Positions 13,938-42,477 of a stretch of DNA of 64,000 nt are shown here, one piece after another. The DNA is from Enterobacteriaceae bacterium (GTDB lineage Bacteria; Pseudomonadota; Gammaproteobacteria; Pseudomonadales; Pseudohongiellaceae), in the NCBI GenBank assembly GCA_038125665.1, contig JAYPEI010000002.1:179311-243310 (forward strand), written 5' to 3'. The stretch's first letter is position 1. The number at the start of each line of letters is the position of its first letter. The notes beneath the pieces were generated by a model. That model was not told where the DNA came from, searched no databases, and saw only the letters and a program-made list of their open reading frames with translations. The translations under genes and the position numbers were made by a program.

Positions 13938-13966
13938 TTTGAATTAAGATTACGAGTTGAAGAAGT

Positions 13967-14911
13967 ATGAATAAAAAAAATCGAAGAGAGATTCTGACTT
14001 TAGCGGGGCAAGGTGTTGGCCTGCTCAGTGTGGTCTCTTTGCTAGGAGGGCTGAGTAGCTGTTCGGGTTCAGCTAAACCTTTACCTATGCAGATACTGAA
14101 ACCAGGTATTACCTTAGTAACAGGTACCCCAGGTAATAGCTTGTTGGTCGAAACTATTGCTGGTCTAGCAATGGTGGACACAGCCGCTGCTGAGAGAGGG
14201 GCAGCTCTACTTGCTACTTTGGCTGGCAGCCCTGTCAATACACTTTTTAATACACACTATCATCGAGATCAAACAGGAGCTAATGCACTTATTGGTGAAA
14301 CAGGTGCTCAGATTTGTGCCCAAGAAATCACTAGACAATGGACCGCCTCAGATTACTACATACCGGCTGAGGAACGTTGGGAACACGCTTTACCTATAAT
14401 TTCTCAACCAACACGCACCTTTCGAGTGCGTGATGAACTAGTGGTGGGAGATCAGAATATTATTTGTGGCTACTTACTAGAGGCTCATACTCGGGGAGAC
14501 ATGTATGTCTATTTCAGTGAGGCGAATGTGCTAGCTGTGGGTGATGTTGCTTCTCCAGAACGAGATCCAGTTTTAGACTGGTTCGCGGGGGGCTGGCTAG
14601 GTGGTCGAGTAGATGCTATTGATGATTTACTTGAAATTGCAAACAATGAAACCCTGATAGTCCCGGCCTATGGCTCAGTAATGACCAGGGGGCAACTACA
14701 AACAGAACGTGACATGATGCAGTATTTATTCGATCGAACTACTGACATGGTTGACCATGGGTTCAGCGCTCAGGACATGCTGGAATCTGGTGTCATGGAT
14801 GAAGTCGTTCAGAAGTTTAATCGTCGTTTCAACGATAACTACCGTTTTCTTTACGATGTAGCTAAAAGTCATTGGGCCCACTACACAAATTTTGGTGGCA
14901 ACATTGTTTAA
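13967..14911 (+). CDS. MBL-fold metallo-hydrolase paralog with a degenerate metal motif and a Tat/lipoprotein-like leader, module A
   Basis: Leader NRREILTLAG...LSSCSGS. The motif NTHYHRDQTG replaces the canonical HxHxDH. AHTRGD and VGDV are conserved. It aligns with the MBL at 21733-22590. Confidence 0.7.
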   Translation: MNKKNRREILTLAGQGVGLLSVVSLLGGLSSCSGSAKPLPMQILKPGITLVTGTPGNSLLVETIAGLAMVDTAAAERGAALLATLAGSPVNTLFNTHYHRDQTGANALIGETGAQICAQEITRQWTASDYYIPAEERWEHALPIISQPTRTFRVRDELVVGDQNIICGYLLEAHTRGDMYVYFSEANVLAVGDVASPERDPVLDWFAGGWLGGRVDAIDDLLEIANNETLIVPAYGSVMTRGQLQTERDMMQYLFDRTTDMVDHGFSAQDMLESGVMDEVVQKFNRRFNDNYRFLYDVAKSHWAHYTNFGGNIV

Positions 14912-14958
14912 GTCGCCACAGCGCTTGGTGAAAAAAATATTGGGCGAGAAAATCAGTT

Positions 14959-22614: not shown

Positions 22615-23619
22615 ATGTTAATGAAATTCTCTTTGTCCAAAATCGCCTTATCCGCTTTCTTGCTTAGTTGTACAGCTGGCACTGCAGCTCATCACAGCCA
22701 GGCTGTTTTTGATACGAGTCGTGTTATTACCTTCGAGGGAACCGTTAAGCGATTCGATTGGCGCAACCCACACATGTACTTGCAGGTAGAGACACAGAAA
22801 GAAAATGGTGAAACCTATGTCCAGCAGATCGAGGGGCTAGCGATAACGCAAGCTCTGGTTGATGGACTTAAAAAAGAGGACCTTCTGCCTGGGATGCAAG
22901 TGATAGTAAGAGCTAACCCAAACAGAAGAGATAGATACAATACTATCAGAGGATTAAACATCACCACCGCAGACGGGGTTGTGCACCCGTTCTACGAAAG
23001 TAACCCAGTACAGCCTGTTCTAGTTCCCGCAGACACAATGAGCGGCCACTGGGCACCCTCTCTGGGGGAAACAGGCAAGGCAATGGCAGCCTCTCGTTCT
23101 TGGCCCCTAAGTAAGCCAGGTCCTCGCCCCTATGAAGAGGCAGGCTGCATGGTCGAACCGGTCCCCTTCTTAACCGTGATAAACGAGTTACGGGTAATCG
23201 AGCTGAGAGAAAATGAAGTGTTAATGAGACATGATAATTCAGGAGATATCGTTGATCGGATAATTCCTCTGGGACTAACAACTCATCCCGACAATATTGT
23301 GCCATCCCTATTTGGTCACTCGATTGGCCGTTGGGAAGGTAACACTTTGGTCATAGACACCATAGGATACGCCGCCAACGATGCTGGCCTGTTCTCTGGT
23401 ATCCCTGGTGGAGTAAGGAAACAGACTATAGAACGTTTAACGCTAACTGAAGATCGTAAACAGCTAAGATATGAAGTAACGATGACGGATCCTGACTTTC
23501 TTACAGCCCCTGTTGAAATTAGTATGTTATGGGATCACCGTCCAGACCTACCACTGTCCAGTGACCCTTGTGAGCAGGAGATTTCTGACAGGTTCCTCAG
23601 TGACGGTTTTTTGGAGTAG
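22615..23619 (+). CDS. secreted protein: DUF6152-like N-terminal domain fused to a ~200-aa C-terminal domain of unknown function
   Basis: A signal peptide is followed by AHHSQAVFDTSRVITFEGTVKRFDWRNPHMYL, the pattern I associate with small DUF6152 proteins found next to TBDRs. The C-terminal part contains GHSIGRWEGNTLVIDT...LRYEVTMTDPDFLTAP. Confidence 0.55.
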   Translation: MLMKFSLSKIALSAFLLSCTAGTAAHHSQAVFDTSRVITFEGTVKRFDWRNPHMYLQVETQKENGETYVQQIEGLAITQALVDGLKKEDLLPGMQVIVRANPNRRDRYNTIRGLNITTADGVVHPFYESNPVQPVLVPADTMSGHWAPSLGETGKAMAASRSWPLSKPGPRPYEEAGCMVEPVPFLTVINELRVIELRENEVLMRHDNSGDIVDRIIPLGLTTHPDNIVPSLFGHSIGRWEGNTLVIDTIGYAANDAGLFSGIPGGVRKQTIERLTLTEDRKQLRYEVTMTDPDFLTAPVEISMLWDHRPDLPLSSDPCEQEISDRFLSDGFLE

Positions 23620-24591: not shown

Positions 24592-25926
24592 CTAGAGCAA
24601 GAATCTGCCTGTTGATATCCCGATCTCATTCATCTCGACACCCATAACGTCGGCTATTCCAAGAAGTAGGTTGGAAGTTGGTTCATCTTCGCTAGCTTTC
24701 AAATGACGGTTACCCTCAACACGTCCCCCCGCACTGCCAACTAACATGGCCGGTACGTTATGGCGATCATGTACCAACCCGTTACTCATGCCTGCACCAT
24801 AGTAGAGTAGAGAGTTGTCTAGCAAGCTACCTTCACCATCAGGAGTGTTGCTCATTTTCTCAACAAATTCTGAGAATTTATGCATCTGATAGGTAGTGAT
24901 CTTGGAATATTTAGCGATACTCTCTTCAGTGTTTTTATGATGAGTCACATTGTGGTGTGGCTCATTGACACCAATGTGAGCATAGCTGCGACCAGTGGCT
25001 TCATGTCCAGTCATGAAAGTGAACACACGAGTCATGTCTCCCTGGAATGCAAGGTGAATTAAATCGTAGGTTATTGACATGTGAGTATCAAAATCCTCAG
25101 GTATGCCGACTGGGCCATCTGTAGCTCCAGATATGACCTCTGAGCGCGATGACATGCGTTCTATTTGGCTTTCCACTCGACGTACATTAGTGAGATATTC
25201 ATCTAAAAGTGTTCTATCATTAGAACCAAGCATTTTATCTAACCGCTTGGTCTCGTCCAGAATAGAGTCCAACATGCTTTGTTTGGTGTCTAGTCGACGA
25301 AGACGCTGTTCCGCGGTGCCAGGATCGCCGAACATACGCTCAAAGGTGACTTGAGGGCTGATTACAACAGGAAGTGGGCTCTCATCATCGTACCAAGCCA
25401 GAGTATTAAAGAAGATACAAGGGTAGTTGTCGCACGCTCCCGCTGCAGTTCCCATATCCTCAACACCGAGCTCGAGTGATCGCATGGGTGTATCCCCAGC
25501 AATAACGTCCGCGATGTACTGATCAAGAGATTTCGCCGAGCGCAACTGGTTAAAGTTCCCATTCTCACTCAAAGGGCCACGGCCGTTAAGAAAAGCTGAA
25601 CTTGCTCCCATATGGATACCGCCCATATCCTGACGTCCCTCAGGTGATTTCATTCGACTTATTGTCGTGACATAGTTCCGGAACCTCTCCATTGGCTTCA
25701 TCACTTTATTGAAGGTGAAGTCTTTCCCAACTTCTTCTGGGTGCCAGTCTCCAGGATATATTCCGTTAGGTATGTAGACAGTACCAAATCTTAGTTTTCT
25801 TGCCGCTGCAGTTTTTGATTGAGCGGTGGCAGCGGGGACCATAGCATCGAGCAGTGGAAGTGCAAGTGCAGTACCAGCACCCCTTAGAAGAGTGCGGCGA
25901 TTGAGATGTTTTTTAGTGATGTACAT
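24592..25926 (-). CDS. Tat-exported DUF1552 family protein, module B
   Basis: Leader LNRRTLLRGAGTALALPLLDAM and motif HNVTHH. Size is 444 aa. Its start lies 2 nt after the stop of the upstream gene. Confidence 0.8.
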   Translation of the reverse strand: MYITKKHLNRRTLLRGAGTALALPLLDAMVPAATAQSKTAAARKLRFGTVYIPNGIYPGDWHPEEVGKDFTFNKVMKPMERFRNYVTTISRMKSPEGRQDMGGIHMGASSAFLNGRGPLSENGNFNQLRSAKSLDQYIADVIAGDTPMRSLELGVEDMGTAAGACDNYPCIFFNTLAWYDDESPLPVVISPQVTFERMFGDPGTAEQRLRRLDTKQSMLDSILDETKRLDKMLGSNDRTLLDEYLTNVRRVESQIERMSSRSEVISGATDGPVGIPEDFDTHMSITYDLIHLAFQGDMTRVFTFMTGHEATGRSYAHIGVNEPHHNVTHHKNTEESIAKYSKITTYQMHKFSEFVEKMSNTPDGEGSLLDNSLLYYGAGMSNGLVHDRHNVPAMLVGSAGGRVEGNRHLKASEDEPTSNLLLGIADVMGVEMNEIGISTGRFLL

Positions 25927-25928
25927 GG

Positions 25929-28391
25929 CTAATCTCCCAAGTTGGTGTTTGAAGCCAGGCTTGAAACGTTTGATTTACTGCTATTTGTACGCATAAGGAA
26001 AGGATAGCTTTCAATGATCCCTAATATGATAGATTGTAAGGAGTAGTTTTCCTTTGAAGCTCCTCTTACAATCCTTCTTACCATAGGTTTATCAAGGGGA
26101 TCAAGCCCCCTGCCCAGTGCATAGATTAGAAGCTTCTCTGTGACCGTGCTTGCAAAAAGCTCTGGGTCGGCAAGGAGGGCCTCTCGTAGCTGTATTGGTC
26201 CATGGATATCTCGACCGTCTAGCAGAGTGCCTGATGAATCTATGGGTAGGCCTTCGCGATTAACCGTTCTCCAAGTTCCATCCACATCAAAGTTTTCCAT
26301 GGCGAAGCCAACAGGGTCAATGACATCATGGCAGTGCGCACAGGTGGGGTCGGCTCGGTGGCGTTCAAGTTGCTCTCTAACAGTAGAGGCACGTCCTACT
26401 GGAGCGCTAGCCTCTAATGCAGGAACATTTGGTGGCGCGGGTGGGGGAGGGTTATTCCAAAGCTCCGATAAGATGAATTTGCCTCTCATAATGGGTGAGG
26501 TTCTGCTGGTTGCCGAAGTCTGAGTGCTGATACTACCGTGCCCTAAAAGACCGAAGCGATTAGGGTCTGTTACATCAACTTTACGAACTCTAGATCCGAG
26601 CACTCCCGAAATGCCATAGTGTTTGGCGAGTCGCTCGTCCACGAAAGTATATTCAGCGGAGAGTAATTCATGGACAGGTCGATTTTCTCTTAGCACGTAC
26701 GCAAAGAGGGACTCTGTTTCTTTCCTCATACTTTGACGTAAGTTGTCATCAAAGTCTGGATACATTGATAAGTCTGGACGAGAAAGTTGGTCCATGTTTC
26801 GTAGATGCAGCCACTGGCCTACAAAGTTTTCGACAAACGAATCAGCCTTTGGATTGTTAAGCATACGAACAACTTGAGATTTTCTCTCTGTTGAGTCCAA
26901 CAATGAATCTGTACTTGCTGAGTCAAGCAACTCATCGTCAGGGATGGATGACCAGAGGAAGTAGGAGAGACGAGACGCTAGTTCGTAGGCATTAATGGCT
27001 TGGTCTGATCCTGGTGCAGTATCAGTTGCATCATTTTCGACCCTAAAAAGGAAGAAGGGACTAACAATTGTTCTGGCTACTCCTGAGCGAATGCCTTCGT
27101 AGAAATTACCGCCACTGTCTCGTTCACTCTGGTAGAAGGCCATTGGGGCTGCAATGTCAGAATCATTAACTTCACGACGGAAAGCTCGTCGTGCTAGGTT
27201 GGTCAATATTTGACGTGCACAGTTTTCTTCTTCGGAAGCTAAAGCTGGGTCACAAGTGAGTATCTTTTCGCGTGTAGACATCTGGCTGATACCAGAAACA
27301 TTGTACGGACCCTCAATCATCACTTTTTCAAGTCTTGGATTGCCAGACGTATTGTGAATTTCTAAGGTATCACGGGCAACGGGTTGCCAAGAATTTTGTT
27401 CAGCATTAGGACGCTCACGCCAAGTCCAGATCACTTCATGCGGACCAGCCGTGACTTTTAGCTTGGGTGAAGTAAGTTTCTGATTGACCACGGGGATGAC
27501 ATCATTAAATTCCTTCACCGAAATTTCATGTTGTTCCTTGCCCCCTATCTTGCTGGAATAAACAAGATTGCCATCGATATATATGAGGAAGTCGTGAGGG
27601 CGATCATGGCCCTCAATACCAAAATAACCTTCCGCAACTCCCTGTAAAGGACGAGCAGAAAAAGTATATTCGCCATCTGCTGGGAAATAATGAGTTTTTG
27701 CAATGCCACCTCTAGTCCCAATAGGCATGCCAGCTAGATGTTTGTTTTGTGAAGTATCGAAAGGAATATTATAAGTGATGGCATTAACGGCAGCCTCTGT
27801 ATTACCCATAGCCAGATCTGCAATTCGCATACCTACCGTAAGATAGCGATCCAGTAACATGGGTGAAGTTCGTAATAGATCACCAATATTGTCGAAGCCA
27901 TAATCTCCTGAGTCTGCCGGTAGCGTCTCGGTTAGGTCAAGATCAATGCCCAGTAAATCACGTATTGAGTTTGTGTACTCGGCTCGGTTTAGTCTGTGAA
28001 TGCTGGTAGAACCTGCATAGGGTTTATGAGCTGCTGACTCATCTAGGGCTGCCTCCAAAACAGCCACGAAGTTTTCTCTCTCCTCTCGACTTGGCTGAGA
28101 ATTACGTTTGGGTGGCATAGAATAAATACGCATCTTCCGGAGGATCTCTTCAAAAATACCTGGATCCTTTGTTAAGTCTTTTGGAGAGTAATCCTCTAGG
28201 GATAAGTTGGCTCTGAATTCAACTATGTTGTGACATTCAGTACAGTACTCATCGACTAATGGCCAAGCCTCTTCTAAGGCAGTTACTGCTTGTTGATTCT
28301 GCTGTGCTTGGGTCTCTAGGACAAAAAACGCGCTAACGCAAGAAAGTTGTGCGAAGAATAGAGCAAACTTCTTTCTTCTAAGATTGGGCAT
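25929..28391 (-). CDS. secreted multidomain heme-c protein of the PSCyt/PSD type (DUF1592-type architecture), module B
   Basis: It has a signal peptide, an N-terminal CTECH followed by MPP, and a C-terminal CAHCHDVIDPVGFAMENFDVDGTWR. Size is 820 aa. Its start lies 1 nt after the ankyrin gene stop. Confidence 0.8.
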   Translation of the reverse strand: MPNLRRKKFALFFAQLSCVSAFFVLETQAQQNQQAVTALEEAWPLVDEYCTECHNIVEFRANLSLEDYSPKDLTKDPGIFEEILRKMRIYSMPPKRNSQPSREERENFVAVLEAALDESAAHKPYAGSTSIHRLNRAEYTNSIRDLLGIDLDLTETLPADSGDYGFDNIGDLLRTSPMLLDRYLTVGMRIADLAMGNTEAAVNAITYNIPFDTSQNKHLAGMPIGTRGGIAKTHYFPADGEYTFSARPLQGVAEGYFGIEGHDRPHDFLIYIDGNLVYSSKIGGKEQHEISVKEFNDVIPVVNQKLTSPKLKVTAGPHEVIWTWRERPNAEQNSWQPVARDTLEIHNTSGNPRLEKVMIEGPYNVSGISQMSTREKILTCDPALASEEENCARQILTNLARRAFRREVNDSDIAAPMAFYQSERDSGGNFYEGIRSGVARTIVSPFFLFRVENDATDTAPGSDQAINAYELASRLSYFLWSSIPDDELLDSASTDSLLDSTERKSQVVRMLNNPKADSFVENFVGQWLHLRNMDQLSRPDLSMYPDFDDNLRQSMRKETESLFAYVLRENRPVHELLSAEYTFVDERLAKHYGISGVLGSRVRKVDVTDPNRFGLLGHGSISTQTSATSRTSPIMRGKFILSELWNNPPPPAPPNVPALEASAPVGRASTVREQLERHRADPTCAHCHDVIDPVGFAMENFDVDGTWRTVNREGLPIDSSGTLLDGRDIHGPIQLREALLADPELFASTVTEKLLIYALGRGLDPLDKPMVRRIVRGASKENYSLQSIILGIIESYPFLMRTNSSKSNVSSLASNTNLGD

Positions 28392-28392
28392 C

Positions 28393-30009
28393 CTACTGAC
28401 CTCTTGCTAGCTGCTGTGAGTGTTCATCTTGTCTAGCTTGGAGCTGGGTATCTTGTAATTCTTCAAGGAGAGCAACAATTTCTTCAGGCCAGGCGGGCGG
28501 TTCCTCAAAATAAAATCCGGGCGTACCGCTAGGCCTAGGCATTTTTCTCACTTGATCGAGTGCGGTTTCTCCTTTGTTATTGGTTTGATCTAGCTGTGCA
28601 CCATGTGCCACCAATGCTTTAATGATCGTAGGATTAAGTTCTTTGACTGCGTAGTGCAAGGCAGTATCACCATCTGGGCCAGCAACTGTGACATCGGCAC
28701 CATGGCGCAGTAATAAATCAACAGCCATTTCAGGACTTCGAACACCCTCCTCCCTGTATGGAGGAGGACCATACCTTAGATCATTTGGGCCACCATCTAC
28801 ACCTACTCCATTGCCACCTCTGATCGCTGCCATCAATGCAGTTCTACTGGCGATGGTTTCTTCACCGTCAATGCCGACGCTGCGTGTTTGTGACTCTGGT
28901 TTCCAGTTGACATCTGCACCGTGTTGTAACATAAGCTCCATACCAGCAATGTCGGCGGCTTCTGCGGCACGATAAAAACCACTGACATTCACTTTAACGT
29001 CGCAGCACATTGAGGCGTTATGCATTTGACCAATGAATGGTTTATTTGGGTCTGCTCCTTTTTCTAACAATCTTCTGGTTAACTCCAGGGCGCTCAATTT
29101 ATTTTCAAAATCATGGCGATAAACTGTGCCATCTTGTGCGCGCCAATCAGTAGTTGCATCACGCATTACTGTTGCGTAATACAGTGAGCCATCATTTGCA
29201 TCAGCACCAAGTTCAAGCATATAGGCTGCGACATCCAGACGATCATTGACTACAGCCAGCATTAAGGGCGTGACTGAATCACCGTTGATGGGGCTAAGGG
29301 CGGCTCCATGTTCGACTAAAAGATCGATCATCTTCAAGTCACCATTGCGAACTGCCCAGTGTAAGGCCGCAAAACCGCCGCTTGTAAAGTCGGCATTTTT
29401 ACGTTTGGTCAACTCATTGACTCTAGTTTGTAAGTTTGGATCTGCATCATGATCTAGAAGAAATTTCGCGACATCATGATGGCCAGCTGCAACTGCCCAC
29501 ATCAAAGCGCTCTGTTGATCAAAAGCTTCTGTTTGATTGACTGGAGCACCATTTTCCAACAGTAGTTTCACTGTGTCTAAGGAACCTGATCGAGCACCTG
29601 CAAGGAGAACAGGCTCCGAAGTGAGATCATGTGATAAAACTTGAGCTCCTGCTTTGAGTAATAATGACAGTATTTCAGTTTCTCCGTTACGTGCAGCCTG
29701 TAACAAAGGGCTGATATCAAGGTTATTTGCAATGTTGGGATCGGCTCCAGCCGCTAGTAAAAGAGACGTCATCTCTTCCGAGCTGTTATAAACAGCCCAA
29801 AGAAGTGCTGAACTGCCATCGGGTGAGGTGCTGTTCACAGATGCCTTTGCGGAGTTGTTTTTTTGTAGAGCTTCTAGCTGAGTTTTAAGTGTATCGGCAT
29901 CGTTTTGACGAGCGCTATTAATCAAACTGTTATTAGCGAATACAACACTACTTATCAGTGAAGAGCACCCAAAAAATAAAGCGAATAGGATTGAACAAAA
30001 ACGCGACAT
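28393..30009 (-). CDS. secreted ankyrin-repeat protein, module B
   Basis: Signal peptide MSRFCSILFALFFGCSSLISSVVFA/NN, followed by ANK repeats such as ALMWAVAAGHHDVAKFLLDHDADPN and TPLMLAVVNDRLDVAAYMLELGADAN. Confidence 0.9.
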   Translation of the reverse strand: MSRFCSILFALFFGCSSLISSVVFANNSLINSARQNDADTLKTQLEALQKNNSAKASVNSTSPDGSSALLWAVYNSSEEMTSLLLAAGADPNIANNLDISPLLQAARNGETEILSLLLKAGAQVLSHDLTSEPVLLAGARSGSLDTVKLLLENGAPVNQTEAFDQQSALMWAVAAGHHDVAKFLLDHDADPNLQTRVNELTKRKNADFTSGGFAALHWAVRNGDLKMIDLLVEHGAALSPINGDSVTPLMLAVVNDRLDVAAYMLELGADANDGSLYYATVMRDATTDWRAQDGTVYRHDFENKLSALELTRRLLEKGADPNKPFIGQMHNASMCCDVKVNVSGFYRAAEAADIAGMELMLQHGADVNWKPESQTRSVGIDGEETIASRTALMAAIRGGNGVGVDGGPNDLRYGPPPYREEGVRSPEMAVDLLLRHGADVTVAGPDGDTALHYAVKELNPTIIKALVAHGAQLDQTNNKGETALDQVRKMPRPSGTPGFYFEEPPAWPEEIVALLEELQDTQLQARQDEHSQQLARGQ

Positions 30010-33084: not shown

Positions 33085-35430
33085 TTATGAGGCCTGCTCT
33101 TTCAAAGCAGCTAAGACCTTTTCAGCACGGAAAGGGACGGACCGTAGTCTAAGACCAGTTGCATCGAATATTGCATTGGCAATAGCGGCGATCATTGGTT
33201 TATGACTAGCTTCACCGGCACCGTAGTGTGGAAGATCTGGTCTGTCAGGTGAGGGGTCTCCATTGACAATGATCACATCAATTGATTCGGGAGTGTCCGA
33301 GTGACGCATAGTAGGGTGTGAGATCCAGTCGGTACTGGTCACTTTCTCTTCGTCGAACTGGACCTCCTCCCACAATGCACGGCTCAGACCATGCAGCATG
33401 CCACATTCTACTGTGTACTTTAGGTTTGTAGGGTTGATGACCAAGCCACAATCATGAGCACATACGAGTCGTTTGACAAACACTCTTCCTGTTAGAGTAT
33501 TCACTTCGGTCTCAGCCATAACAGTGACTACCGTGCCATTACGATAGGTATATGCAACACCTTGACCGAGTAGCACTTCATTGCGAGACGACCCCGATGG
33601 GGCTGACCCTTGGCCCCAACCAAAACTTTGCGCTGCCGCCTTTAATGTTGCCAGAGAGCGTGCTCTTCGGAAGCGATTGTCTTCCGGCATGGCAGTAATT
33701 AGCTGCATTCGGAAATCTACTGGGTCTACCTTTGCCGCTGCAGCCATTTCATCAATAAAGGACTCAAAAGCAAAAGTGACTTGCGGACCATTAGGGTCTC
33801 TCAAATTACCGCAACGAAGTGGGGTTTCCCAGATTTGAGGTAAGCTAACTATATGTCCAGTGAGTTTTTGATTTGGAATTGCATAAAGGATATCTGGTGT
33901 TGGTGCCGAGCCTGGTGCAGGTGTTGGTGTACGTCTTCCCATCAGTTGAGCAATCAGTACGGTGTTAGGGTCGTTGTACCAGAGGTGATTATAGTCTAGC
34001 GCACGAGCCTCATATTCAAGTGCGGTTGGCTTGTTTTCATCATCTAAAGCTCCTCGTAAGCGGAACGTGAATGCAGGTCCCTTGGTATCCCAAGCAGTTT
34101 CCTCCGCACGAGACCACTGAACGCGGACGGGTATGCCTAATTCGTGTGCCAGGAAGGCAGCTTCAAAGCCTGCATCATCGGCAGCAGTGCGGCCATAGAC
34201 CTGCGGACCATCCATGTACACCACGCGCACTTTCTCACGAGGTAGATTAAGGAACTCTGCCACACCATTGCGTAGACCATAAGTTTTCATATCATTAGAA
34301 TAAATGGTTAGCTGACCATCAGAGGGATCTGCCATTGCATGAGCAGGCCCAATGGCTGTGTGTCCTTGGAAGGGGACCTCGTAATCAGCTTCAATTACTC
34401 TCGCTGCAGAGGCAAAGGCAGCTTCGGGCTCGCCGTTAACTAAGTCTTGGCCAATGACTGCAGGTTCTTGCTCTCGGATATATGAAAAGAGCTTTTGTGA
34501 CGAAGGAAAAGCAGGTTTTGTTGGTTTTTGCCAAGCAACTTTCAAATCACTTGCACCAGCTATTGCTTGTTCTTCACGTTCAAAAACCACTGCTAGATAA
34601 TTTCCACGATGAACAACAGCAACAAAACCCTGTTTTCCAGAGATTGAACTCTCATCCACACTGATTATTTTTGCTCCAGCTACAGGGGGGCGAACATGTC
34701 TAGCATGCACCATGCCCGGTACTGTCATATCCACTGCCCAAGTAAGCGATCCATCTACTTTGGGGGGTATATCGTAACGCTGGATGGATTGACCTATTAG
34801 TTGTAAGTCCTGCACTTTTTTTACATCTGCTTGGCCTTTTGTTGCGTTGATGTTAGCGCCCGAAAGTGTAATATCGAAACGTTTACCTCCAACTAATTGG
34901 GCATAAGTCACTGTACGTGAGGGATCTTGAATGAGATAAATGACACCATTACTTACGTCGAGTTCACCGACATCAACCCCAAATTCCGTGGATGCTAGCT
35001 CCAAAAGAACTCGTCGAGCTTCTGCAGCAGTTCGACGCATCGGCCAACCGTCTACTTCTATGGCATCCGAGCCGCCCGAGCCCCCTTGATCTGGTGTGAT
35101 ATCTGTTCTGCCCATCACCAGGATGGTATCGGTATAAGCCATGTCCAACTCATCGGCCATCATTTGCCGAAAAGCAGTACCTGTACCTTGTCCACCATCG
35201 GTTTTGCCCACAAAAAAAGTAGCTGTATTGTCTGGGTGAATGACAATCCAGGTATCCAATTGCAGGTAATCTGGATCGGGATAAGTTCCAACACTAGCGG
35301 TTTGGGAGAAAACACTTTGTAACGTTCCAGAGCTAATAACTATTGCTCCTGAAGCCAACAAGAATTGCCGACGCGAGCTTGATGGCAGTTTTTGGCCAAG
35401 TACAGAGGCTATGTAAGTAGGGAATTTCAT
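33085..35430 (-). CDS. molybdopterin-binding large subunit (IorB / aldehyde oxidase family), Tat-type leader
   Basis: Leader SSRRQFLLASGAIVI. Size is 781 aa. It has xanthine dehydrogenase family beta-subunit organisation and a 4-nt overlap with the small-subunit gene. Confidence 0.85.
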   Translation of the reverse strand: MKFPTYIASVLGQKLPSSSRRQFLLASGAIVISSGTLQSVFSQTASVGTYPDPDYLQLDTWIVIHPDNTATFFVGKTDGGQGTGTAFRQMMADELDMAYTDTILVMGRTDITPDQGGSGGSDAIEVDGWPMRRTAAEARRVLLELASTEFGVDVGELDVSNGVIYLIQDPSRTVTYAQLVGGKRFDITLSGANINATKGQADVKKVQDLQLIGQSIQRYDIPPKVDGSLTWAVDMTVPGMVHARHVRPPVAGAKIISVDESSISGKQGFVAVVHRGNYLAVVFEREEQAIAGASDLKVAWQKPTKPAFPSSQKLFSYIREQEPAVIGQDLVNGEPEAAFASAARVIEADYEVPFQGHTAIGPAHAMADPSDGQLTIYSNDMKTYGLRNGVAEFLNLPREKVRVVYMDGPQVYGRTAADDAGFEAAFLAHELGIPVRVQWSRAEETAWDTKGPAFTFRLRGALDDENKPTALEYEARALDYNHLWYNDPNTVLIAQLMGRRTPTPAPGSAPTPDILYAIPNQKLTGHIVSLPQIWETPLRCGNLRDPNGPQVTFAFESFIDEMAAAAKVDPVDFRMQLITAMPEDNRFRRARSLATLKAAAQSFGWGQGSAPSGSSRNEVLLGQGVAYTYRNGTVVTVMAETEVNTLTGRVFVKRLVCAHDCGLVINPTNLKYTVECGMLHGLSRALWEEVQFDEEKVTSTDWISHPTMRHSDTPESIDVIIVNGDPSPDRPDLPHYGAGEASHKPMIAAIANAIFDATGLRLRSVPFRAEKVLAALKEQAS

Positions 35431-35960
35431 GAGCTAACCCCCACAGTACTTGTCTCAGACATGGCATCAACAAACTCAGTAGGTTTAGGTTGTGTATTTG
35501 CTATCTGTTTTTTGGCGGCATCTTTAATAGCGGCATGTATTCTGAAATAGCTCATACAACGGCATAAAACACCTTCCATGCCAGCTCTGATTTCTGCATC
35601 ACTGGGGTTGGGATTGTTATTTAGAAGGACCCGCGCTGTGAGTAATTGACCATTCTGACAATACCCACATTGAGGAACCTGATGATCTACCCATGCCTGC
35701 TGAAGAAGATCCAATTGTCCGGACTTCGAGAGTCCTTCAAGTGTCGTGATTTTACCAGTGACATTGGCTACAGGTAATAAGCAGGTACGTACTGCTCTAC
35801 CATCAATAATTGCAGTACAAGCTCCACATTGTCCTAAGCCGCAACCGAAGTGTGGGCCCTTTAGATGAAGATCATTACGCAGCACATAGAGCAAAGGAGT
35901 AGAAGGATCTACATCTACCTGATGATTATTGCCGTTAACTGTAAGCTGGTAGATCGGCAT
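35427..35960 (-). CDS. (2Fe-2S)-binding small subunit of a Moco dehydrogenase
   Basis: Cysteine clusters CGLGQCGACTA, CGYCQNGQ and CRCMSY. ATG at 35960 is preceded by GGAG, so it is preferred over the track's TTG at 35972. Confidence 0.9.
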   Translation of the reverse strand: MPIYQLTVNGNNHQVDVDPSTPLLYVLRNDLHLKGPHFGCGLGQCGACTAIIDGRAVRTCLLPVANVTGKITTLEGLSKSGQLDLLQQAWVDHQVPQCGYCQNGQLLTARVLLNNNPNPSDAEIRAGMEGVLCRCMSYFRIHAAIKDAAKKQIANTQPKPTEFVDAMSETSTVGVSS

Positions 35961-36104
35961 AACAGGCTCCAAGAATGAAAATTTTCAAACTGTAGATTAC
36001 TGGATGGGTCAAGGGAATTCAATTGACTAGGTTGTTTAGCAGACTGCTAGTTCTTCATTTAGAAACTTGAGTGAAGATGCTTACTAATATTCCATTCAAA
36101 TATC

Positions 36105-36494
36105 TTAGTCCTCTGCTTCTTGGTTAATCATATAAAGTACAGCGGAGGAGATTTCTGCATCAGAAAGATCAGGCCTACCTCCCTTCCTGGGCATGATGCC
36201 AAACTTGCCAGAGTAGCCATTTAAGGCATGACTGATTAATGTCTCAAGACCTTGTGTGAGTCTTGGTGCCCAGTCTGCTTCGCTACGAAAAGCAGGGGCT
36301 CCCCCAAGACCAGGCGGTGAATGGCAGGCGATACAAACATTTTCATAGACTCGTTGCCCATTGAGTTGCTTTTTATTTGTCATTTCAGAGGGATGACTTA
36401 CCTCTTGGGCACTTGCTGAGTATAAGGTACAACTGTCTAAAAGTATTATAAAAAAAATTAATATTAGAGTAGCGTTTAATTTCTTCTTGGCCAT
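36105..36494 (-). CDS. c-type cytochrome (cytochrome c5-like), probable electron acceptor of the downstream dehydrogenase
   Basis: It has a signal peptide, a single CIACH heme motif, and a distal MP(R)KGG and SDAEISSAVLYM typical of c5-type cytochromes. Confidence 0.8.
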   Translation of the reverse strand: MAKKKLNATLILIFFIILLDSCTLYSASAQEVSHPSEMTNKKQLNGQRVYENVCIACHSPPGLGGAPAFRSEADWAPRLTQGLETLISHALNGYSGKFGIMPRKGGRPDLSDAEISSAVLYMINQEAED

Positions 36495-36791: not shown

Positions 36792-39476
36792 ATGAAGAAA
36801 CATGCATTTTCCTTAGTCCTATCGCTTGTTACCGCAAGTGGCTTCAGTACTTTGATAACGAGCCTAGCATACGCGCAGATGAATCACTCAACACATAACC
36901 ATGAGGCCAGTGAACATGAGGCTCACCATGATGCCCATCTTGCAGAAGCTGTAACAGTTAACGCACTAATGGCAGGACAATGGTCTGATGCTTCGATTTG
37001 GTCATCAGGTAAAGTACCTAGTGCAGGTTCGCTAGTGACCATAGGTGAGGGAATAGAGGTTGTATTGGATTCAGACACAGCGGCTTTACAAGGTTTGAAT
37101 CTCAATGGGAAATTAAGCTTTGCGGATAACAAAAAAATCGAGCTCACCACAGAGTGGGTACTGTTAACTGGTGAACTTGAAATAGGAAGTGCCACAACTC
37201 CTTATTCAGGTAATGCAACCATCACCCTAACAGATCATGTTACTGGTGAAAATATCAATGGTATGGGGGATCGTGGAATTCTATTAGTGGGTGGGACTTT
37301 GAATCTTCACGGCAACCGCAAAAATAGTTGGACTAAACTAACTTCTACTGCCGAAGTTGGTAGTAAGGTTATAGAGGTCATGGATGGTAGCGGTTGGAGA
37401 GAAGGGGACCAAATAGTATTAGCCTCCACTGACTTCAATCCCCGTCAGGCAGAACGCCGATATATTGATAAAATTCGAGGTAACAAAATCACCTTGGATG
37501 AGCCGTTAGAGTTCATGCATTTTGGGCAGATAACTTATGGAGTCGATGAACGTGGTGAAGTTGGTTTACTGTCACGAAACATTAAAATTCAAGCCTCAGA
37601 GGATGCTGAAAAAACATTCTTTGGTGGCCACATCATGGCGATGGTTACCAGTAAAATGTATGTTGATGGTGTTGAGTTGACCCGGATGGGCCAAAACCTT
37701 GAATTAGCTAGATACCCCATTCACTGGCACCTTGTCGGAGAAGGCGGGGCGGGTCAGTATCTTGTTAACACTGCCATCTATGATACTTACAATCGTTGTG
37801 TCACAGTTCATGGAACGAATGATTTAAAAGTAGAAAATAACGTCACCTACAACACTGTTGGGCATTGTTTTTTCATGGAGGATGGAATTGAGACAGGTAA
37901 CGAGTTTATACGAAATTTAGCGATTCAAACCAAATGTCACACTTCTCTCGCCTGCGATCCAACTAACTTGGCTCCTTTCGGGTCATCTCCAGATGGATTA
38001 AATTTTAAAACCACAGGTCAAGACTCTCCCCACATTCTCATACCATCTGATAACACTGCGTCTTCATTCTGGATTACTAATCCAGACAACACCTACAGAG
38101 GTAACGTGGCAGCAGGTTCTGATTCAACAGGTTTTTGGTTTGCATTTCCTGAGCATCCAACTGGTGCATTCGAGGGCTCTGAGATTAGTCAAGCTACTTG
38201 GCCTCGACGGACTAAATTTCGTGAGTTTTCAGGAAACGTAGCCCACTCTAACTTCGATGGGTTTATGGGTGACCGTGCTCCTCGTGCGGATGGTCATTTT
38301 GCAGTGGGTGGCTATATAGCTCTATCAGACCCCTCAGATCCAAACAGTAAACAAGTAGAGTCAGTTGTTGAGGATTTCACAACCTATAAAAATCGGAACA
38401 GTGGTATCTGGGCCCGTGGAGAATTACATCTCTATAAGGGTCTAAAAATGGCTGATAATGGTATAGGTTTCACCCATGCTTCTGGAGCCTTTGGGCAGGC
38501 CCCGTACACGTCTCGAGTAGTTGATTCAGTTTTTGTGGGTGAATCTGAAAATATCGGAAACCCTGAGTCTAGTTCAGAAATGGCCTATGGAAGAAGTTTG
38601 CCTCAACCTATGTTGGCAGATTTTCCAATCAGGGCTTATGAGTTTTATGATTATCATCATCAGTTGGAAAATAATACTTTTATCAACTATCAAGATAATG
38701 AAACCCGCAAGACTGGAGCTGTCTCGTACCTTCTATTCACCAGCTTTGGGATGAGTTCAAATAATTATCTAGAACGATCTACTTTCATAAACGCTAAACC
38801 AGTATATTTCCCACGAATTGATAACCGTTGGAGTAACGACGATTACGGTAATACGATTTATAAGACCTCAGTTTTCAATGATCGAGATGGAACTATAACT
38901 GGCATACCAGGCTCATATATTTTAAATGATACCGGGTATGATGCCGATGACAAATGTGAGTCTAGAGCTAGCTGGAATGCACTTGTATGCACCGGAGACA
39001 TGGGGCGTATGACGGTTGGTGGTGGCGGACCCGTTGGATTTAGTTTTGGTGGTGGGTCGCGCCCGACTACGCCACCAGTATTTGAAATTGCTCCAGGTGG
39101 TGGACGTATTCGTGGTCGTCCACCTGAGGGTCCTCAAATTCTTCTAAGCAGAAATGGCAAAAAATTTAAAGCAGAAAGTGAAACAAATGTACGGTCTGGA
39201 AGTGAATATAGGGTTGAAACAATGAGAGAGACCCTAAATCTAAACGTCAAAGAATTAGATGAAGGTTCATGGGTGATTTTTGAGTTGCCAGGTTTTAGTA
39301 TCGCCGACAAAGCAGAAGAACAAAGAAGCCTCGATAATCTGCATGATGCCAAGGTGACATCTTTCTACAAGGGGGAAAAGTCTCTTTGGGTGAAACTGGT
39401 ATCCACTGGTGATGTTTTGGGAAGCGCTCAAGGTAAGGGGCCTGGGCCAGGAGAAAGCGTTAGTGTCAGTCGTTAA
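36792..39476 (+). CDS. secreted G8-domain / parallel beta-helix protein (CEMIP/TMEM2-like), copy 1, with His-rich N-terminus
   Basis: It has a signal peptide and a His-rich stretch. The G8-like pattern is GQWSDASIWSSGKVPSAGSLVTIGEG...LNLNGKLSFAD...EWVLLTGELEIG...ATITL. It is followed by VLASTDFNPRQAE, ARYPIHWHLVGEGG, NRCVTVHGT and GHCFFMEDGIETGN. Confidence 0.8.
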   Translation: MKKHAFSLVLSLVTASGFSTLITSLAYAQMNHSTHNHEASEHEAHHDAHLAEAVTVNALMAGQWSDASIWSSGKVPSAGSLVTIGEGIEVVLDSDTAALQGLNLNGKLSFADNKKIELTTEWVLLTGELEIGSATTPYSGNATITLTDHVTGENINGMGDRGILLVGGTLNLHGNRKNSWTKLTSTAEVGSKVIEVMDGSGWREGDQIVLASTDFNPRQAERRYIDKIRGNKITLDEPLEFMHFGQITYGVDERGEVGLLSRNIKIQASEDAEKTFFGGHIMAMVTSKMYVDGVELTRMGQNLELARYPIHWHLVGEGGAGQYLVNTAIYDTYNRCVTVHGTNDLKVENNVTYNTVGHCFFMEDGIETGNEFIRNLAIQTKCHTSLACDPTNLAPFGSSPDGLNFKTTGQDSPHILIPSDNTASSFWITNPDNTYRGNVAAGSDSTGFWFAFPEHPTGAFEGSEISQATWPRRTKFREFSGNVAHSNFDGFMGDRAPRADGHFAVGGYIALSDPSDPNSKQVESVVEDFTTYKNRNSGIWARGELHLYKGLKMADNGIGFTHASGAFGQAPYTSRVVDSVFVGESENIGNPESSSEMAYGRSLPQPMLADFPIRAYEFYDYHHQLENNTFINYQDNETRKTGAVSYLLFTSFGMSSNNYLERSTFINAKPVYFPRIDNRWSNDDYGNTIYKTSVFNDRDGTITGIPGSYILNDTGYDADDKCESRASWNALVCTGDMGRMTVGGGGPVGFSFGGGSRPTTPPVFEIAPGGGRIRGRPPEGPQILLSRNGKKFKAESETNVRSGSEYRVETMRETLNLNVKELDEGSWVIFELPGFSIADKAEEQRSLDNLHDAKVTSFYKGEKSLWVKLVSTGDVLGSAQGKGPGPGESVSVSR

Positions 39477-39528
39477 TATTTTTTTGTCTCTACGCCATCT
39501 GAGTTAAAAGTAAATTAGAAATTAAAAT

Positions 39529-39558
39529 GGGGTAGGTGAATCGCCCACCCCGTTGTTT
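39529..39558 (+). terminator. probable terminator after G8 gene copy 1
   Basis: Stem ggggtagg / cccacccc (8 bp, one mismatch) with a 7-nt loop, followed by gttgttt. Confidence 0.5.
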
Positions 39559-39696
39559 CAAGAAGTCCTCAGACTAGTAGAGATATTATTATTTACAGTC
39601 TTATGTTGGTCCTCAGTAGTTTCTTTTGCTAATTTCTGAAGAAAGTTTTATAGAGTTTTGTGTGTTCAATAACCAGCTTAGTAATGGGGAATGTAA

Positions 39697-42342
39697 ATGA
39701 GATCTGGTTTCTTTTTCTACATGTCGATCTTGTTATCAGGAGTTTGCTCTTTTCAGCTGCAGGCTGAAGAGGCTATAAAATCTGGCCTTTGGTCTGATTC
39801 ATCGATTTGGTCAAACGGAGAACTTCCCAAAGTCGGCGCTAAGGTGAGCATTGCTAAAGAGGTCAACGTTATTCTTGATGTCACGCCTCCCTCTTTGAAC
39901 GGTCTGACGATCAATGGCAAATTAAGCTTCTCAGATGAGACTGATATTGAGTTAAGTACAGAATGGATAATGGTGTTCGGAGAGTTGGAAATTGGCACAG
40001 AGTCCATACCTCATGAAAGACGAGCCATTATTACTCTTACAGATAATGTCCCTGATGAGCAAATGATGGGCATGGGAGATCGTGGCATCATGCTTTCTGG
40101 TGGCACACTAAATTTACATGGTAATCGCTCCAATGCTTGGACAAAACTGGATCAAACTGCAAGAGCCGGAGCAAACACCATCACAGTTTTGAACGCAGCT
40201 CAATGGGAAGTTGGTGATCAAATAGTCCTGGCGTCAACAGACTTTAACCCGCGACAAGCCGAAACTCGGTTTATTCAAGCTATTGATGGCAATACCCTCA
40301 CGCTTGATATCCCTCTGGAGTTCATGCACTACGGTGAGATAACTTATGGGATAGATGAACGCGGGGAGGTTGGCTTGCTAACTCGTAATATTAAGATTCA
40401 GTCTTCTGAAGATTCTTTGGAGTCTTACTTTGGTGGTCATGTGATGGCTATGGTAACCAGTAAAATGTTTGTCGATGGGGTTGAGTTAAACCGCATGGGG
40501 CAGCACATGGAATTAGCCCGCTACCCAATTCATTGGCACCTTGTGGGAGAGGGAGGAAAAGGGCAATACATAAAGAATACATCAATACACGATACTTTTA
40601 ATCGGTGTGTAACTGTGCATGGAACTCACGATTTGAAGATAGAAAATAATGTCACTTATAACACGATTGGGCACTGTTTTTTTATGGAAGATGGTATCGA
40701 AACAGGTAATGAATTCATCAGAAATTTGGCAATTCAAACCAAGTGTCACCCCACGAGACCATGCGTACCAAATAATTTAGCTGCTAATGGGGAAATTGGT
40801 ACTGAGAGTCGCCAGAATTTAAGAAAAATAAGTTTTTCCGGTGAGCACACTCTGTTACCTTCGGACAATACTGTTTCCTCTTTTTGGATTACTAACCCGG
40901 ATAACTCATACATAGATAACGTGGCCGCTGGCTCAGATGAAACAGGATTTTGGTTTTCAATTCCGCAACACCCAAACGGTGCATTTCTGGGTTCAGAATT
41001 AAGCATGAATATCTGGCCTAGGAGAACTGCTCTGCGTGCTTTCAAAGGTAATGTGGCTCATTCTAATTTCGATGGCTTCATGATTGACCGGCACATAGAC
41101 GAAGATAATACTTTTGGCTTGGCTTCCATTCCTCTACTGCCACTAACAGATCCAGAAGATCTTGAAAGTGAAGTCCTTGAATCTCACTTCGAAAACCTTA
41201 CTAGCTATAAAAACCGTAATGGTGGATTGTGGGGGAGAGGCGACATGTATGTCTATAGCAACATGAAGCTAGCAGATAACGCTATTGGCATGACACAAGC
41301 TGCAGGTGATATAGGCAGTCTACCTTTTAGTTCAAGGCTAGTCGACGCGCTAGTCGTAGGTGAAACAGATAATATTGGTAACCCGACAACGAATGAAGAG
41401 TTGGCATATGGACGTAGTTTGCCTAAACCGCTTATTCCAGATTTCCCTATTCGTGGTTACGAATATTACGACTACCGTGATGATGTTGTGAATCCAACTT
41501 TCATAAACTTCCAAGATAACTCTAGAAGAAATACTGGCGCGCTCTCCTTTTTGATGTTTACAAGTGCAGGATTGAGTACTAGAAGTACCATTAGTGGTGC
41601 AACTTTTATCAACGCTAAGCCAGTTTATTTCCCAAAGTATGATGCAAGGTTCGATAACGATAATCGTGGGGGTAATTCCTACAGAACGCTTTCAATCCAT
41701 GACCTGGATGGTTCAGTGAGTGGTATCCCAAATTCTTATATTTTATTAAACGATGGGGAGAATGATAGTGTTGCTAGTGATGAGACCTGTCAGTTGAAAC
41801 CTTCATGGAATGCTACAGTTTGTACTGGCGATATTGGTCGATTAAATCTGTCAGATAGTCGGGGAGAGTTACCTGCAGCTGTAGATCTTGAAACTCGTAC
41901 AGCGCGTTTTGCCTTACTGGCTTCACTAAGCCCAAATGCGCCAGACACTCCTTTAGTTAGGGCTCAACGCTCTGCGCTGTTTTCCAGACGTCCACCACAA
42001 GAGCCTATTAAATTGATGCGAAATGGTCGAGAGTTCAATATTTTCGGAGATCAAAGTACAGTAAAAGCTGGTACGGAGATTCAAGTAAAAACTGAAAGAG
42101 AGGAGGTTACTCTTAGTGTTAGTGAGTTGGAAGAAGGTGCTTGGTTAATCTTTGAATTACCCGGGTTTTCAAAGTCTGCTTCAGGGGCCCAACAACAGAG
42201 TATCGATGCATTACACGAAGCTAAGGAGACCTCTTGGTATCAAGAAGTAGATACACTTTGGGTGAAATTAGTGGCCAAGGCACCGATGAAACCGGTGGTT
42301 CGTCCCACGGATCTGCAGGCAAGCATTACAGTGACGCGTTAA
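39697..42342 (+). CDS. secreted G8-domain / parallel beta-helix protein (CEMIP/TMEM2-like), copy 2
   Basis: It has a signal peptide. The G8-like pattern is GLWSDSSIWSNGELPKVGAKVSIAKE...LTINGKLSFSD...EWIMVFGELEIG. The core motifs are identical to copy 1: VLASTDFNPRQAE, ARYPIHWHLVGEGG and GHCFFMEDGIETGNEFIRNLAIQTKCH. Confidence 0.8.
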   Translation: MRSGFFFYMSILLSGVCSFQLQAEEAIKSGLWSDSSIWSNGELPKVGAKVSIAKEVNVILDVTPPSLNGLTINGKLSFSDETDIELSTEWIMVFGELEIGTESIPHERRAIITLTDNVPDEQMMGMGDRGIMLSGGTLNLHGNRSNAWTKLDQTARAGANTITVLNAAQWEVGDQIVLASTDFNPRQAETRFIQAIDGNTLTLDIPLEFMHYGEITYGIDERGEVGLLTRNIKIQSSEDSLESYFGGHVMAMVTSKMFVDGVELNRMGQHMELARYPIHWHLVGEGGKGQYIKNTSIHDTFNRCVTVHGTHDLKIENNVTYNTIGHCFFMEDGIETGNEFIRNLAIQTKCHPTRPCVPNNLAANGEIGTESRQNLRKISFSGEHTLLPSDNTVSSFWITNPDNSYIDNVAAGSDETGFWFSIPQHPNGAFLGSELSMNIWPRRTALRAFKGNVAHSNFDGFMIDRHIDEDNTFGLASIPLLPLTDPEDLESEVLESHFENLTSYKNRNGGLWGRGDMYVYSNMKLADNAIGMTQAAGDIGSLPFSSRLVDALVVGETDNIGNPTTNEELAYGRSLPKPLIPDFPIRGYEYYDYRDDVVNPTFINFQDNSRRNTGALSFLMFTSAGLSTRSTISGATFINAKPVYFPKYDARFDNDNRGGNSYRTLSIHDLDGSVSGIPNSYILLNDGENDSVASDETCQLKPSWNATVCTGDIGRLNLSDSRGELPAAVDLETRTARFALLASLSPNAPDTPLVRAQRSALFSRRPPQEPIKLMRNGREFNIFGDQSTVKAGTEIQVKTEREEVTLSVSELEEGAWLIFELPGFSKSASGAQQQSIDALHEAKETSWYQEVDTLWVKLVAKAPMKPVVRPTDLQASITVTR

Positions 42343-42400: not shown

Positions 42401-42477
<77 letters not shown>

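Follow-up and report, generated by a model that had tools for sequence, protein, structure and literature searches.

Introduction

Hyaluronan is a polymer of the vertebrate matrix, and its cleavage by the closest described relatives of the proteins considered here, the animal proteins CEMIP (KIAA1199/HYBID) and TMEM2 (CEMIP2), is still disputed, in its mechanism and even in its existence, more than a decade after these proteins were discovered. In TMEM2 the G8 domain belongs to a continuous helix, into which a beta-sandwich of small size and also a first lectin-like domain are inserted after three turns, with the second lectin-like domain close to the C-terminus; this structure was built from a 3.5 Å map and the active site was left unassigned (PMC10206443). 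A review from 2025 calls the parts that the G8 domain and the beta-helix play in CEMIP and TMEM2 "elusive". In this work we analyzed a pair of neighboring genes encoding bacterial proteins of this kind, contained in a stretch of 64,000 nucleotides (hereafter the window; contig JAYPEI010000002.1, assembly GCA_038125665.1) from a member of the Pseudohongiellaceae.

An earlier note on this DNA had described two genes on the same strand, encoding proteins of 894 and 881 amino acids (aa), and had regarded them as homologues of CEMIP and TMEM2. Open reading frame (ORF) calling confirmed both genes:

36792-39476, plus strand: copy 1, a predicted exported G8/CEMIP-type beta-helix protein (ORF of 894 aa; Pfam and structural model).
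39697-42342, plus strand: copy 2, a predicted exported G8/CEMIP-type beta-helix protein of another subfamily (ORF of 881 aa; Pfam).

The motifs quoted in that note, namely WSD...LD, VLASTDFNPRQAE, ARYPIHWHLVGEGG, NRCVTVHGT and GHCFFMEDGIETGNEFIRNLAIQTKCH, were found in both copies, and no further G8/CEMIP-type gene was present in the window.

That the bacterial family is homologous to CEMIP/TMEM2 is already known, and the genes of the window are ordinary members of it. What appears to be unreported in the literature searched is that the bacterial clade represents a minimal core devoid of lectin domains, that it forms arrays of ancient paralogues, that a near-invariant His/Arg/acidic cluster is common to the bacterial and the human proteins, and that the genes tend to adjoin periplasmic haem proteins and not carbohydrate genes. 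The bacterial core offers a simple system to test the disputed activity of CEMIP and TMEM2, as these proteins are small, strongly conserved, abundant and free of lectin domains, and the residues to be mutated can be named. What the pair does in the cell, including its enzymatic activity, the position of its active site and the glycan nature of its substrate, we infer.

Domain composition and fold

Both copies are members of the CEMIP/TMEM2 superfamily by sequence, profile and fold. The G8 domain (PF10162) scored 92.5 bits in copy 1 (aa 70-184, E 2.4e-26) and 91.3 bits in copy 2 (aa 38-151, E 5.6e-26), against a gathering cut-off of 22.9, and the CEMIP_beta-hel domain (PF24606) scored 269.8 bits in copy 1 (aa 277-489) and 269.7 bits in copy 2 (aa 244-459), with an E-value of 2.3e-80 in both cases and a gathering cut-off of 27.3. 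No NCBIfam model matched either copy, and when the C-terminal 150 aa, the preceding 254 aa and the N-terminal tail were rescanned against Pfam at E <=10, nothing meaningful was retrieved. In a phmmer search of the PDB, the sole match was the ectodomain of human TMEM2 (8C6I), with an E-value of 1.6e-87.

A model of copy 1 was built with AlphaFold2 from 114 sequences of bacteria, animals and dictyostelids, and reached a predicted local distance difference test (pLDDT) of 88.9 and a predicted TM-score (pTM) of 0.90; an earlier model derived from an alignment of 15 sequences had a pLDDT of 49 and was discarded. Disorder was confined to residues 1-49, comprising the signal peptide and a His-rich tail, and to the Gly-rich linker 747-774. 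The modeled protein is a long right-handed beta-helix from the G8 region on, whose rungs consist of three strands each and in which N326, N350 and N375 form an Asn ladder along the T2 turns, followed by a small C-terminal beta-sandwich. The elements of copy 1 are the following:

36792-36878, plus strand: predicted Sec signal peptide, aa 1-29, cut after AYA (by inspection; pLDDT <50 over aa 1-49).
36879-36947, plus strand: His-rich tail, aa 30-52 (QMNHSTHNHEASEHEAHHDAH...), with 7 His in the best window of 20 aa.
36999-37343, plus strand: G8 domain, aa 70-184, forming the first rungs of the beta-helix (PF10162).
37620-38258, plus strand: core of the CEMIP beta-helix (Pfam segment), aa 277-489 (PF24606).
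37722-37892, plus strand: polar cluster H311, H313, R335, C336, H340, H358, C359, E363, D364 and E367 (by conservation).
39030-39113, plus strand: disordered Gly-rich linker, aa 747-774 (GGGGPVGFSFGGGSRP...), pLDDT <50.
39129-39473, plus strand: C-terminal beta-sandwich-like domain, aa 780-894 (all-beta, pLDDT 90-98; without Pfam hit at E <=10).

When the model was compared with the PDB by Foldseek, TMEM2 (8c6i_A) was far ahead of any other structure (E 2.5e-49, TMq 0.74), so that the Pfam scan and the structural comparison both bear out the homology put forward in the earlier note. The remaining significant matches were nearly all beta-helix lyases, hydrolases, epimerases and depolymerases acting on polysaccharides, among them phage tailspikes, the Klebsiella K1 capsule lyase, PL6, GH87 and GH110 enzymes, and the alginate epimerase AlgG. 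With these proteins (the PL6 chondroitinase B, the capsule depolymerases, GH87, GH110 and AlgG) the bacterial G8 proteins have in common the right-handed parallel beta-helix and a candidate site on the PB1 face of the groove; in contrast to the catalytic signatures known to us for PL6, GH87, GH110 and AlgG, the putative site of the G8 proteins is rich in His. Neither copy belongs, according to Pfam and NCBIfam, to any of the beta-helix CAZy families PL1, PL6, PL9, GH28, GH49, GH87 or GH110.

As for their export, both N-termini looked Sec-like on inspection, in agreement with the signal peptides ascribed to them before: copy 1 has MKKH, a hydrophobic core and AYA before a Q, and copy 2 has MRSG, a hydrophobic core and LQA before an E. 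Neither N-terminus showed a canonical lipobox on inspection, and an anchoring of copy 2 as a lipoprotein through LSGVC was ruled out by the Val at position -1. The six Cys of each mature protein form three pairs that are local in sequence, a pattern consistent with proteins located outside the cytoplasm.

Comparison with the animal proteins and the question of hyaluronan

The ectodomain of TMEM2 (8C6I), at approximately 32-36% identity, shares with the bacterial proteins the G8 rungs that run on into a CEMIP-type helix, all invariant polar residues and the two loops. TMEM2 is membrane-anchored, whereas the bacterial proteins have no transmembrane anchor and carry a predicted cleavable signal peptide; their C-terminus also differs, consisting of the Gly-rich linker and a small beta-sandwich of ~110 aa. 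The beta-sandwich and the lectin-like domain that TMEM2 carries behind its G8 rungs are both missing from the bacterial proteins. Residues ~166-335 of the TMEM2 chain had no counterpart in them in the alignment, and a broad alignment placed animal-specific insertions of ~85 plus 80-209 residues at positions 189 and 198 of copy 1. Animal and dictyostelid relatives bear PF24605 and/or PF15711 (ILEI/GG), and neither of these domains was matched in the proteins of the window, even at E <=10.

CEMIP is likewise secreted by means of a signal peptide and has the G8 domain, the CEMIP beta-helix and the same invariant residues, but it requires GG-1 (R187) for hyaluronan degradation (PMC12423501), and GG domains are missing from the bacterial proteins. 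Depolymerization of hyaluronan to fragments of ~5-10 kDa is the functional mark of the animal class, and for human TMEM2 it is itself disputed. The known substitutions that abolish or confer hyaluronan degradation all lie in GG-1, namely R187 in CEMIP and R265, D273, D286, H248 and A303 in TMEM2 (PMC10206443, PMC12423501). Because GG-1 is absent and the carriers are soil and water bacteria, hyaluronan is not supported as a substrate; a specific hyaluronidase function was set aside and, judging from the domain composition, hyaluronan is an unlikely substrate of the bacterial pair. The link with hyaluronan or glycosaminoglycans suggested in the earlier note turned out to be weak on this account. 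The genes are not found in a polysaccharide-utilization context either. A secreted polysaccharide depolymerase, as put forward in the earlier note, is still a reasonable hypothesis.

A conserved polar cluster on the groove face

Fifteen columns were invariant in 114 sequences of bacteria, animals and dictyostelids and are kept in both copies: G300, Q301, P309, H311, H313, R335, C336, H340, G357, H358, C359, D364, E367, D420 and G442. The two copies thus retain the family pattern HxH, RC..H, GHC...ED..E and D420. A second measure of conservation, taken over ~140 diverse cluster representatives sharing only 35-45% identity, gave 100% for R335, 99% for H243, H311, H340, H358, E363, E367 and H485, 98% for H313 and 92% for D364. 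The values for C336 and C359 were 72% and 50%, respectively; being far less conserved than the polar residues, these Cys are probably structural.

In the DSSP register of the copy 1 model, the PB1 strands comprise residues 310-316, 337-342 and 358-362, and the PB2 strands residues 323-325, 346-348 and 371-373. According to this register, three successive rungs carry the histidines of the cluster on their PB1 strands, R335 belongs to the T3 turn before PB1, and the T1 turn after it bears E363, D364 and E367. The PB1 face is the site of substrate binding and cleavage in pectate lyases, polygalacturonases (GH28), PL1 and PL6 enzymes and tailspikes. Two long loops cover the groove of copy 1, one formed by aa 382-423, which holds the invariant D420, and the other by aa 494-523. 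Counting along the alignment, the equivalents of the cluster in human TMEM2 are H550, H552, R580, H585, H603, D609 and E612, and the TMEM2 loops 627-662 and 733-756 were described as obstructing this region of the groove (PMC10206443).

Proposed function of the pair

Our data, taken from sequence and model, lead us to propose, with a probability of roughly 0.5, that the two genes encode exported glycan-active beta-helix enzymes using the conserved cluster of the groove, and that the paralogues have become adapted to different substrates. In favor of this proposal are the family and the fold, the conservation of the cluster, the constraint on both copies, the export signals, and the diversification of the paralogues, whose divergence is concentrated in the loops and the C-terminal domain. 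The two products are single-chain right-handed beta-helix proteins with predicted Sec export, representing the minimal bacterial core of CEMIP/TMEM2 without lectin-like domains, with an architecture composed of G8 rungs, CEMIP-type helix, two groove loops, Gly-rich linker and beta-sandwich. They would cleave or modify an extracellular or periplasmic polysaccharide by means of an active site formed by the groove-face residues H311, H313, R335, H340, H358, E363, D364 and E367, with H243, H485 and D420 nearby. The candidate chemistry includes hydrolysis by the acidic residues, a Ca2+-assisted beta-elimination with the invariant Arg or a His as the base, or some other reaction. The two copies probably recognize different substrates or linkages, by way of the groove loops (382-423 and 494-523) and the C-terminal domain, in which they mainly differ.

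Several observations weigh against this proposal. The enzymes other than TMEM2 that were retrieved by Foldseek match the generic fold only (TM <=0.24, 7-12% identity), and the clustering of the invariant residues in three dimensions depends on the modeled strand register. To our knowledge, a site with six or seven His resembles no catalytic signature of a beta-helix glycoside hydrolase or polysaccharide lyase. No activity has been reported for any bacterial member in the literature searched, in line with the statement of the earlier note that none is known to have a defined substrate. Even the animal proteins are disputed as catalysts in their own right, and none of their residues has been assigned as catalytic (PMC10206443, PMC10276149, PMC10474455, PMC12423501). 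Finally, neither in the window nor in the sampled loci did SusC/D pairs, sulfatases or sugar transporters lie beside the genes, and CAZymes (GH43 and GH51) were found near family genes in a single sampled locus, L082. This context argues against a classical polysaccharide-utilization locus and hints at a link with periplasmic haem proteins.

Genomic context and a possible link with haem proteins

The neighbors of the family were analyzed by clustering the ORFs of 78 related loci. The elements of the window relevant to this analysis are the following:

36105-36494, minus strand: small mono-haem c-type cytochrome of 129 aa with CIACH (Pfam Cytochrome_CBB3 and Cytochrom_C).
10137-16572, plus strand: set of PSD/PSCyt3 (CxxCH), DUF1552 (HXXSHH) and signal-peptide ankyrin genes, plus a metallo-beta-lactamase-fold gene.
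24592-30009, minus strand: set of PSD/PSCyt3 (CxxCH), DUF1552 (HXXSHH) and signal-peptide ankyrin genes.
22615-23619, plus strand: DUF6152 protein, ~13 kb upstream of the pair.

The commonest close neighbors of the family genes were two families of small mono-haem cytochromes c; these were never on the strand of the family gene, and in most cases they diverged from it at a distance below 300 bp. Of the 177 slots flanking family genes, 17 held small CxxCH proteins, compared with 4 of the 737 non-flanking slots of the same loci (odds ratio 19, p 1e-9). The cytochrome gene of the window is divergent from copy 1 and 298 bp apart, and its orthologues flank G8 genes in nine other loci; that of L068 is 62% identical and adjoins a copy-1-type gene. 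Other recurrent neighbors were DUF6152, DUF8021, ferritin-like, SnoaL-like and SRPBCC proteins and the trio formed by PSD/PSCyt3, DUF1552 and ankyrin proteins. The trio was present in about nine loci, including Bryobacteraceae (Acidobacteriota), and in L079 it lies on the same strand directly upstream of the G8 gene. The function of the PSD/PSCyt families is reported as wholly unknown (PMC5615132).

These neighbors bring in an alternative to the glycan-active enzymes proposed above, which is that the proteins are metal-dependent, possibly redox-linked periplasmic enzymes working together with the small cytochromes and the neighboring haem proteins. H243, H311, H313, H340, H358, H485 and usually H330, along with E363, D364 and E367, would bind one or two metal ions, and the reaction could be an oxidative cleavage of a polymer or a chemistry unrelated to glycans. 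In support of this idea, besides the enrichment of CxxCH proteins at the flanking slots, two different cytochrome families are involved, which in several loci are placed within the arrays of paralogues, along with a ferritin-like protein; a copy-1-type gene and the cytochrome stay adjacent across genomes whose RpoD proteins are 75.6% identical; PSCyt/PSD, DUF1552 and ankyrin genes recur near the genes in both Gammaproteobacteria and Acidobacteriota; the putative site holds unusually many near-invariant His; and the mature N-termini of copy 1 and of several unrelated members are rich in His or in His and Met. On the other hand, the linkage with cytochromes was seen in 14 of 77 loci, nearly all from Gammaproteobacteria and always with the cytochrome on the opposite strand, so that inheritance of a shared gene block could account for it, and many lineages have no such neighbors; in these other lineages no conserved partner gene was found beside the family genes of the sampled loci. 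The cytochrome of the window also heads a molybdenum-enzyme operon (33085-35972), and its partner could be this enzyme and not the G8 protein. Neither protein has a cofactor-binding motif, and we know of no redox beta-helix enzyme of this kind. The assays cited for TMEM2 used Ca2+ and not a transition metal. On balance we consider this alternative unlikely.

A broader form of the same idea, for which we see only a very slim chance, is that the His/Arg/acidic cluster constitutes, from bacteria to human, a metal-dependent site that needs a partner or cofactor, provided in bacteria by the adjacent periplasmic cytochromes c. If this were true, the family would represent a new mechanistic class of polymer-cleaving beta-helix enzymes, and the conflicting reports on TMEM2 and CEMIP activity would be explained by the absence of the metal or the redox partner. 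The bacterial proteins, with no glycosylation, no lectin domains and three likely disulfides, would then be the model with which to settle the question.

Some further observations on this neighborhood can be added. In the operon next to copy 1 (33085-36494, minus strand), the cytochrome c is joined by the 2Fe-2S and molybdopterin subunits of an enzyme of the aldehyde-oxidoreductase/xanthine-dehydrogenase type, and a second gene for a molybdopterin subunit of this type is found at 3821-5992 (plus strand), directly after an ORF of 164 aa (3330-3824). DUF6152 (PF19649) was the top neighbor of the G8 genes other than their paralogues, present in 18 of the 78 loci (L079, L080, L081 and L084 among them). 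The window also holds metallo-beta-lactamase-fold proteins and two TonB-dependent receptors.

Alternatives without catalysis or with an endogenous substrate

Another explanation is that the proteins are non-catalytic and bind a glycan or another ligand, either as pseudo-enzymes or as adhesin-like surface proteins, similar to the regulatory role proposed for human TMEM2. In one study, the purified ectodomain of human TMEM2 neither bound nor cleaved hyaluronan (PMC10206443), and a second study termed human TMEM2 non-catalytic (PMC10276149); another group, however, reported an intrinsic activity of the purified protein (PMC10474455). The long conserved loops that cover the middle of the groove, the multi-copy arrays and the existence of very large relatives with several units and lengths up to 4,455 aa, which recall adhesins, would also suit a binding role. 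Against this, the ionizable polar cluster is 98-100% conserved from bacteria to human, which points to chemistry, and neither protein has a cell-anchoring motif, a lipobox or repeats. We regard a purely binding function as improbable.

The weakest candidate, to which we give little credit, is an enzyme that processes an exopolysaccharide or envelope glycan of the bacterium itself, as an epimerase, a lyase or a trimming enzyme comparable to AlgG or AlgL: the Foldseek matches include the periplasmic alginate C5-epimerase AlgG (4ozy and 4nk8), which uses a His-containing DPHD motif, export to the periplasm is predicted and the level of conservation is that of a housekeeping protein, but the AlgG matches are weak (E ~2e-3 to 6e-3, TMq ~0.2), neither in the window nor among the sampled loci do glycosyltransferase, polymerase or export genes adjoin the G8 genes, and up to six diverged paralogues would not be expected for a single biosynthetic pathway.

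Origin of the pair

Copies 1 and 2 are 56% identical over 837 aa. The identity peaks at 74-80% between residues 201 and 400 of copy 1 and is 58-64% on either side; the earlier estimate of approximately 80% for the central part was thus close in value, although it had been extended to ~350 aa and the peak covers 200. As had also been noticed, the C-terminal part is the most diverged, with ~43% identity past residue 650, 29-50% past residue 700 and a minimum of 29% at 751-800. Within the helix, the groove loops are among the segments that differ most between the copies.

The third codon positions, said before to differ extensively, are 38% identical, the synonymous divergence (dS) is saturated and the nonsynonymous divergence (dN) is 0.36. 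These values indicate an ancient split with purifying selection on both copies, and in this respect the old duplication proposed in the earlier note stands; its tandem origin does not. When 116 full-length relatives were clustered, copies 1 and 2 fell into different subfamilies, each with orthologues elsewhere; those of copy 2 occur in loci L002, L075, L023 and L079. In a related metagenome-assembled genome (MAG; prefix JAQWPL01), whose RpoD and DnaG are 75.6% and 56% identical to those of the window, the copy-1-type gene (72% identical) adjoins the cytochrome c gene on one contig, while the copy-2-type gene (77% identical) is located on another contig and adjoins rpoD-dnaG, as it does in the window. 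The G8 orthologues of this MAG are therefore conserved approximately like the sigma factor RpoD and better than the primase DnaG. A recent or in situ tandem duplication was ruled out by the saturated dS, the separate subfamilies and the separate contigs in JAQWPL01. The sequence comparisons indicate that the window juxtaposes two ancient subfamilies and that the pair is not a local duplication.

On the other side of copy 2, a tRNA-Met gene (CAT; 42401-42477, minus strand) lies between its stop codon and the end of rpoD; in L079 this interval between the G8 gene and rpoD is occupied instead by LysR, DsbA-like and extracytoplasmic function (ECF) sigma factor genes. The Rfam scan of the whole window yielded a tRNA and nothing else.

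Distribution of the family and paralogue arrays

The family is not an obscure one: public annotation already has names for it ("G8 domain-containing protein", "CEMIP"), and when one genome per species was scanned, carriers were found in at least 586 species. With E <1e-10, either copy matched over 5,000 metagenomic proteins, and at E <=1e-30 there were 1,949 matching clusters when the library was clustered at 50% identity. Relatives with 70-78% identity, equal length and the same two Pfam domains number in the hundreds. Among the matches listed, the carriers were Pseudohongiellaceae, Steroidobacteraceae, other Gammaproteobacteria, Sphingomonadales and Acidobacteriota (Vicinamibacterales and Bryobacteraceae), nearly all of them environmental MAGs of free-living water or soil heterotrophs, with a few cultured strains, for instance Alteraurantiacibacter aestuarii JCM 16339 and Altererythrobacter sp. 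CC-YST694. In the literature searched, no bacterial member has been characterized. With its presence in soil, freshwater and marine species by the hundreds, often as arrays that reach six diverged copies, the family amounts to a sizeable blind spot in the annotation of carbon cycling.

A comparison of the bacterial and the metazoan proteins, advised in the earlier note, was made by means of a rough neighbor-joining tree, in which the bacterial clade was separate from the animal and dictyostelid groups. This separate clade rules out a recent transfer from animals.

Two to six paralogues within ~20 kb were present in 30 of the 78 related loci; arrays with several copies are typical of the family, and the pair of the window is a small example. 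Arrays of five or six paralogues over ~20 kb occur in L002 (CAZDCK010000018.1), L031, L049 and L070, and that of L002 mixes the copy-1-type and copy-2-type subfamilies; the label of this MAG, "uncultured Enterobacteriaceae", looks like a taxonomic mislabel judging by its relatives. At the other extreme of organization, P0418, P0469, P0471, P0492 and others are giant relatives of 3,400-4,455 aa with several matched stretches, which implies that the G8/CEMIP unit is also a module of giant multi-domain proteins.

Particular features of copy 1 and of the intergenic regions

Although the window proteins are ordinary members of the bacterial "G8 domain-containing protein" family, copy 1 differs from the rest by its His-rich tail and by the change H330Y. 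In 149 highly conserved columns, this was the one non-conservative change, and the four other deviations were conservative. Position 330 of copy 1 (codon TAT, 37779-37781) is Tyr, versus His in 96% of the aligned relatives; it is His in 116 of 117 copy-1-like matches and in all 118 copy-2-like matches. The same Tyr is found in P0001, an independent metagenome protein 99% identical to copy 1, so it is not a sequencing error.

Regarding the intergenic regions, a G+C-rich hairpin follows copy 1 and had been taken before as its own terminator:

39529-39551, strand not assigned: intergenic G+C-rich hairpin, possible terminator of copy 1 (hairpin scan).

The hairpin, GGGGTAGGTG-aatcg-CCCACCCC, is indeed present, but on the plus strand only GTTGTTTC comes after it, a weak T-run, and it was only for the minus strand that the terminator scanner gave it a score. 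A role as the terminator of copy 1 is plausible from its sequence, even though it is not a textbook one. Upstream of the G8 genes in L001, L002, L005, L007 and L068 there is a block of ~80 nucleotides (…CAGTGTACCAAAATCTGCTTCAGGGTGGGAT…TTTTCACTTTTTATTCAC…ATACCATCA…), possibly a promoter, operator or leader that they have in common; this block is absent from the cytochrome-G8 intergenic region of the window.

The His-rich tail, with at least six His, was found only in copy 1 and P0001 among 349 family members. Weaker His/Met-rich mature N-termini occur in unrelated members, for instance AQ/DAHAHIDMP, AQ/EHVHGE and AQ/EHADHDM (the slash marks the predicted cut), and some His/Met-rich N-termini of family members match the X-X-H (ATCUN-like) pattern.

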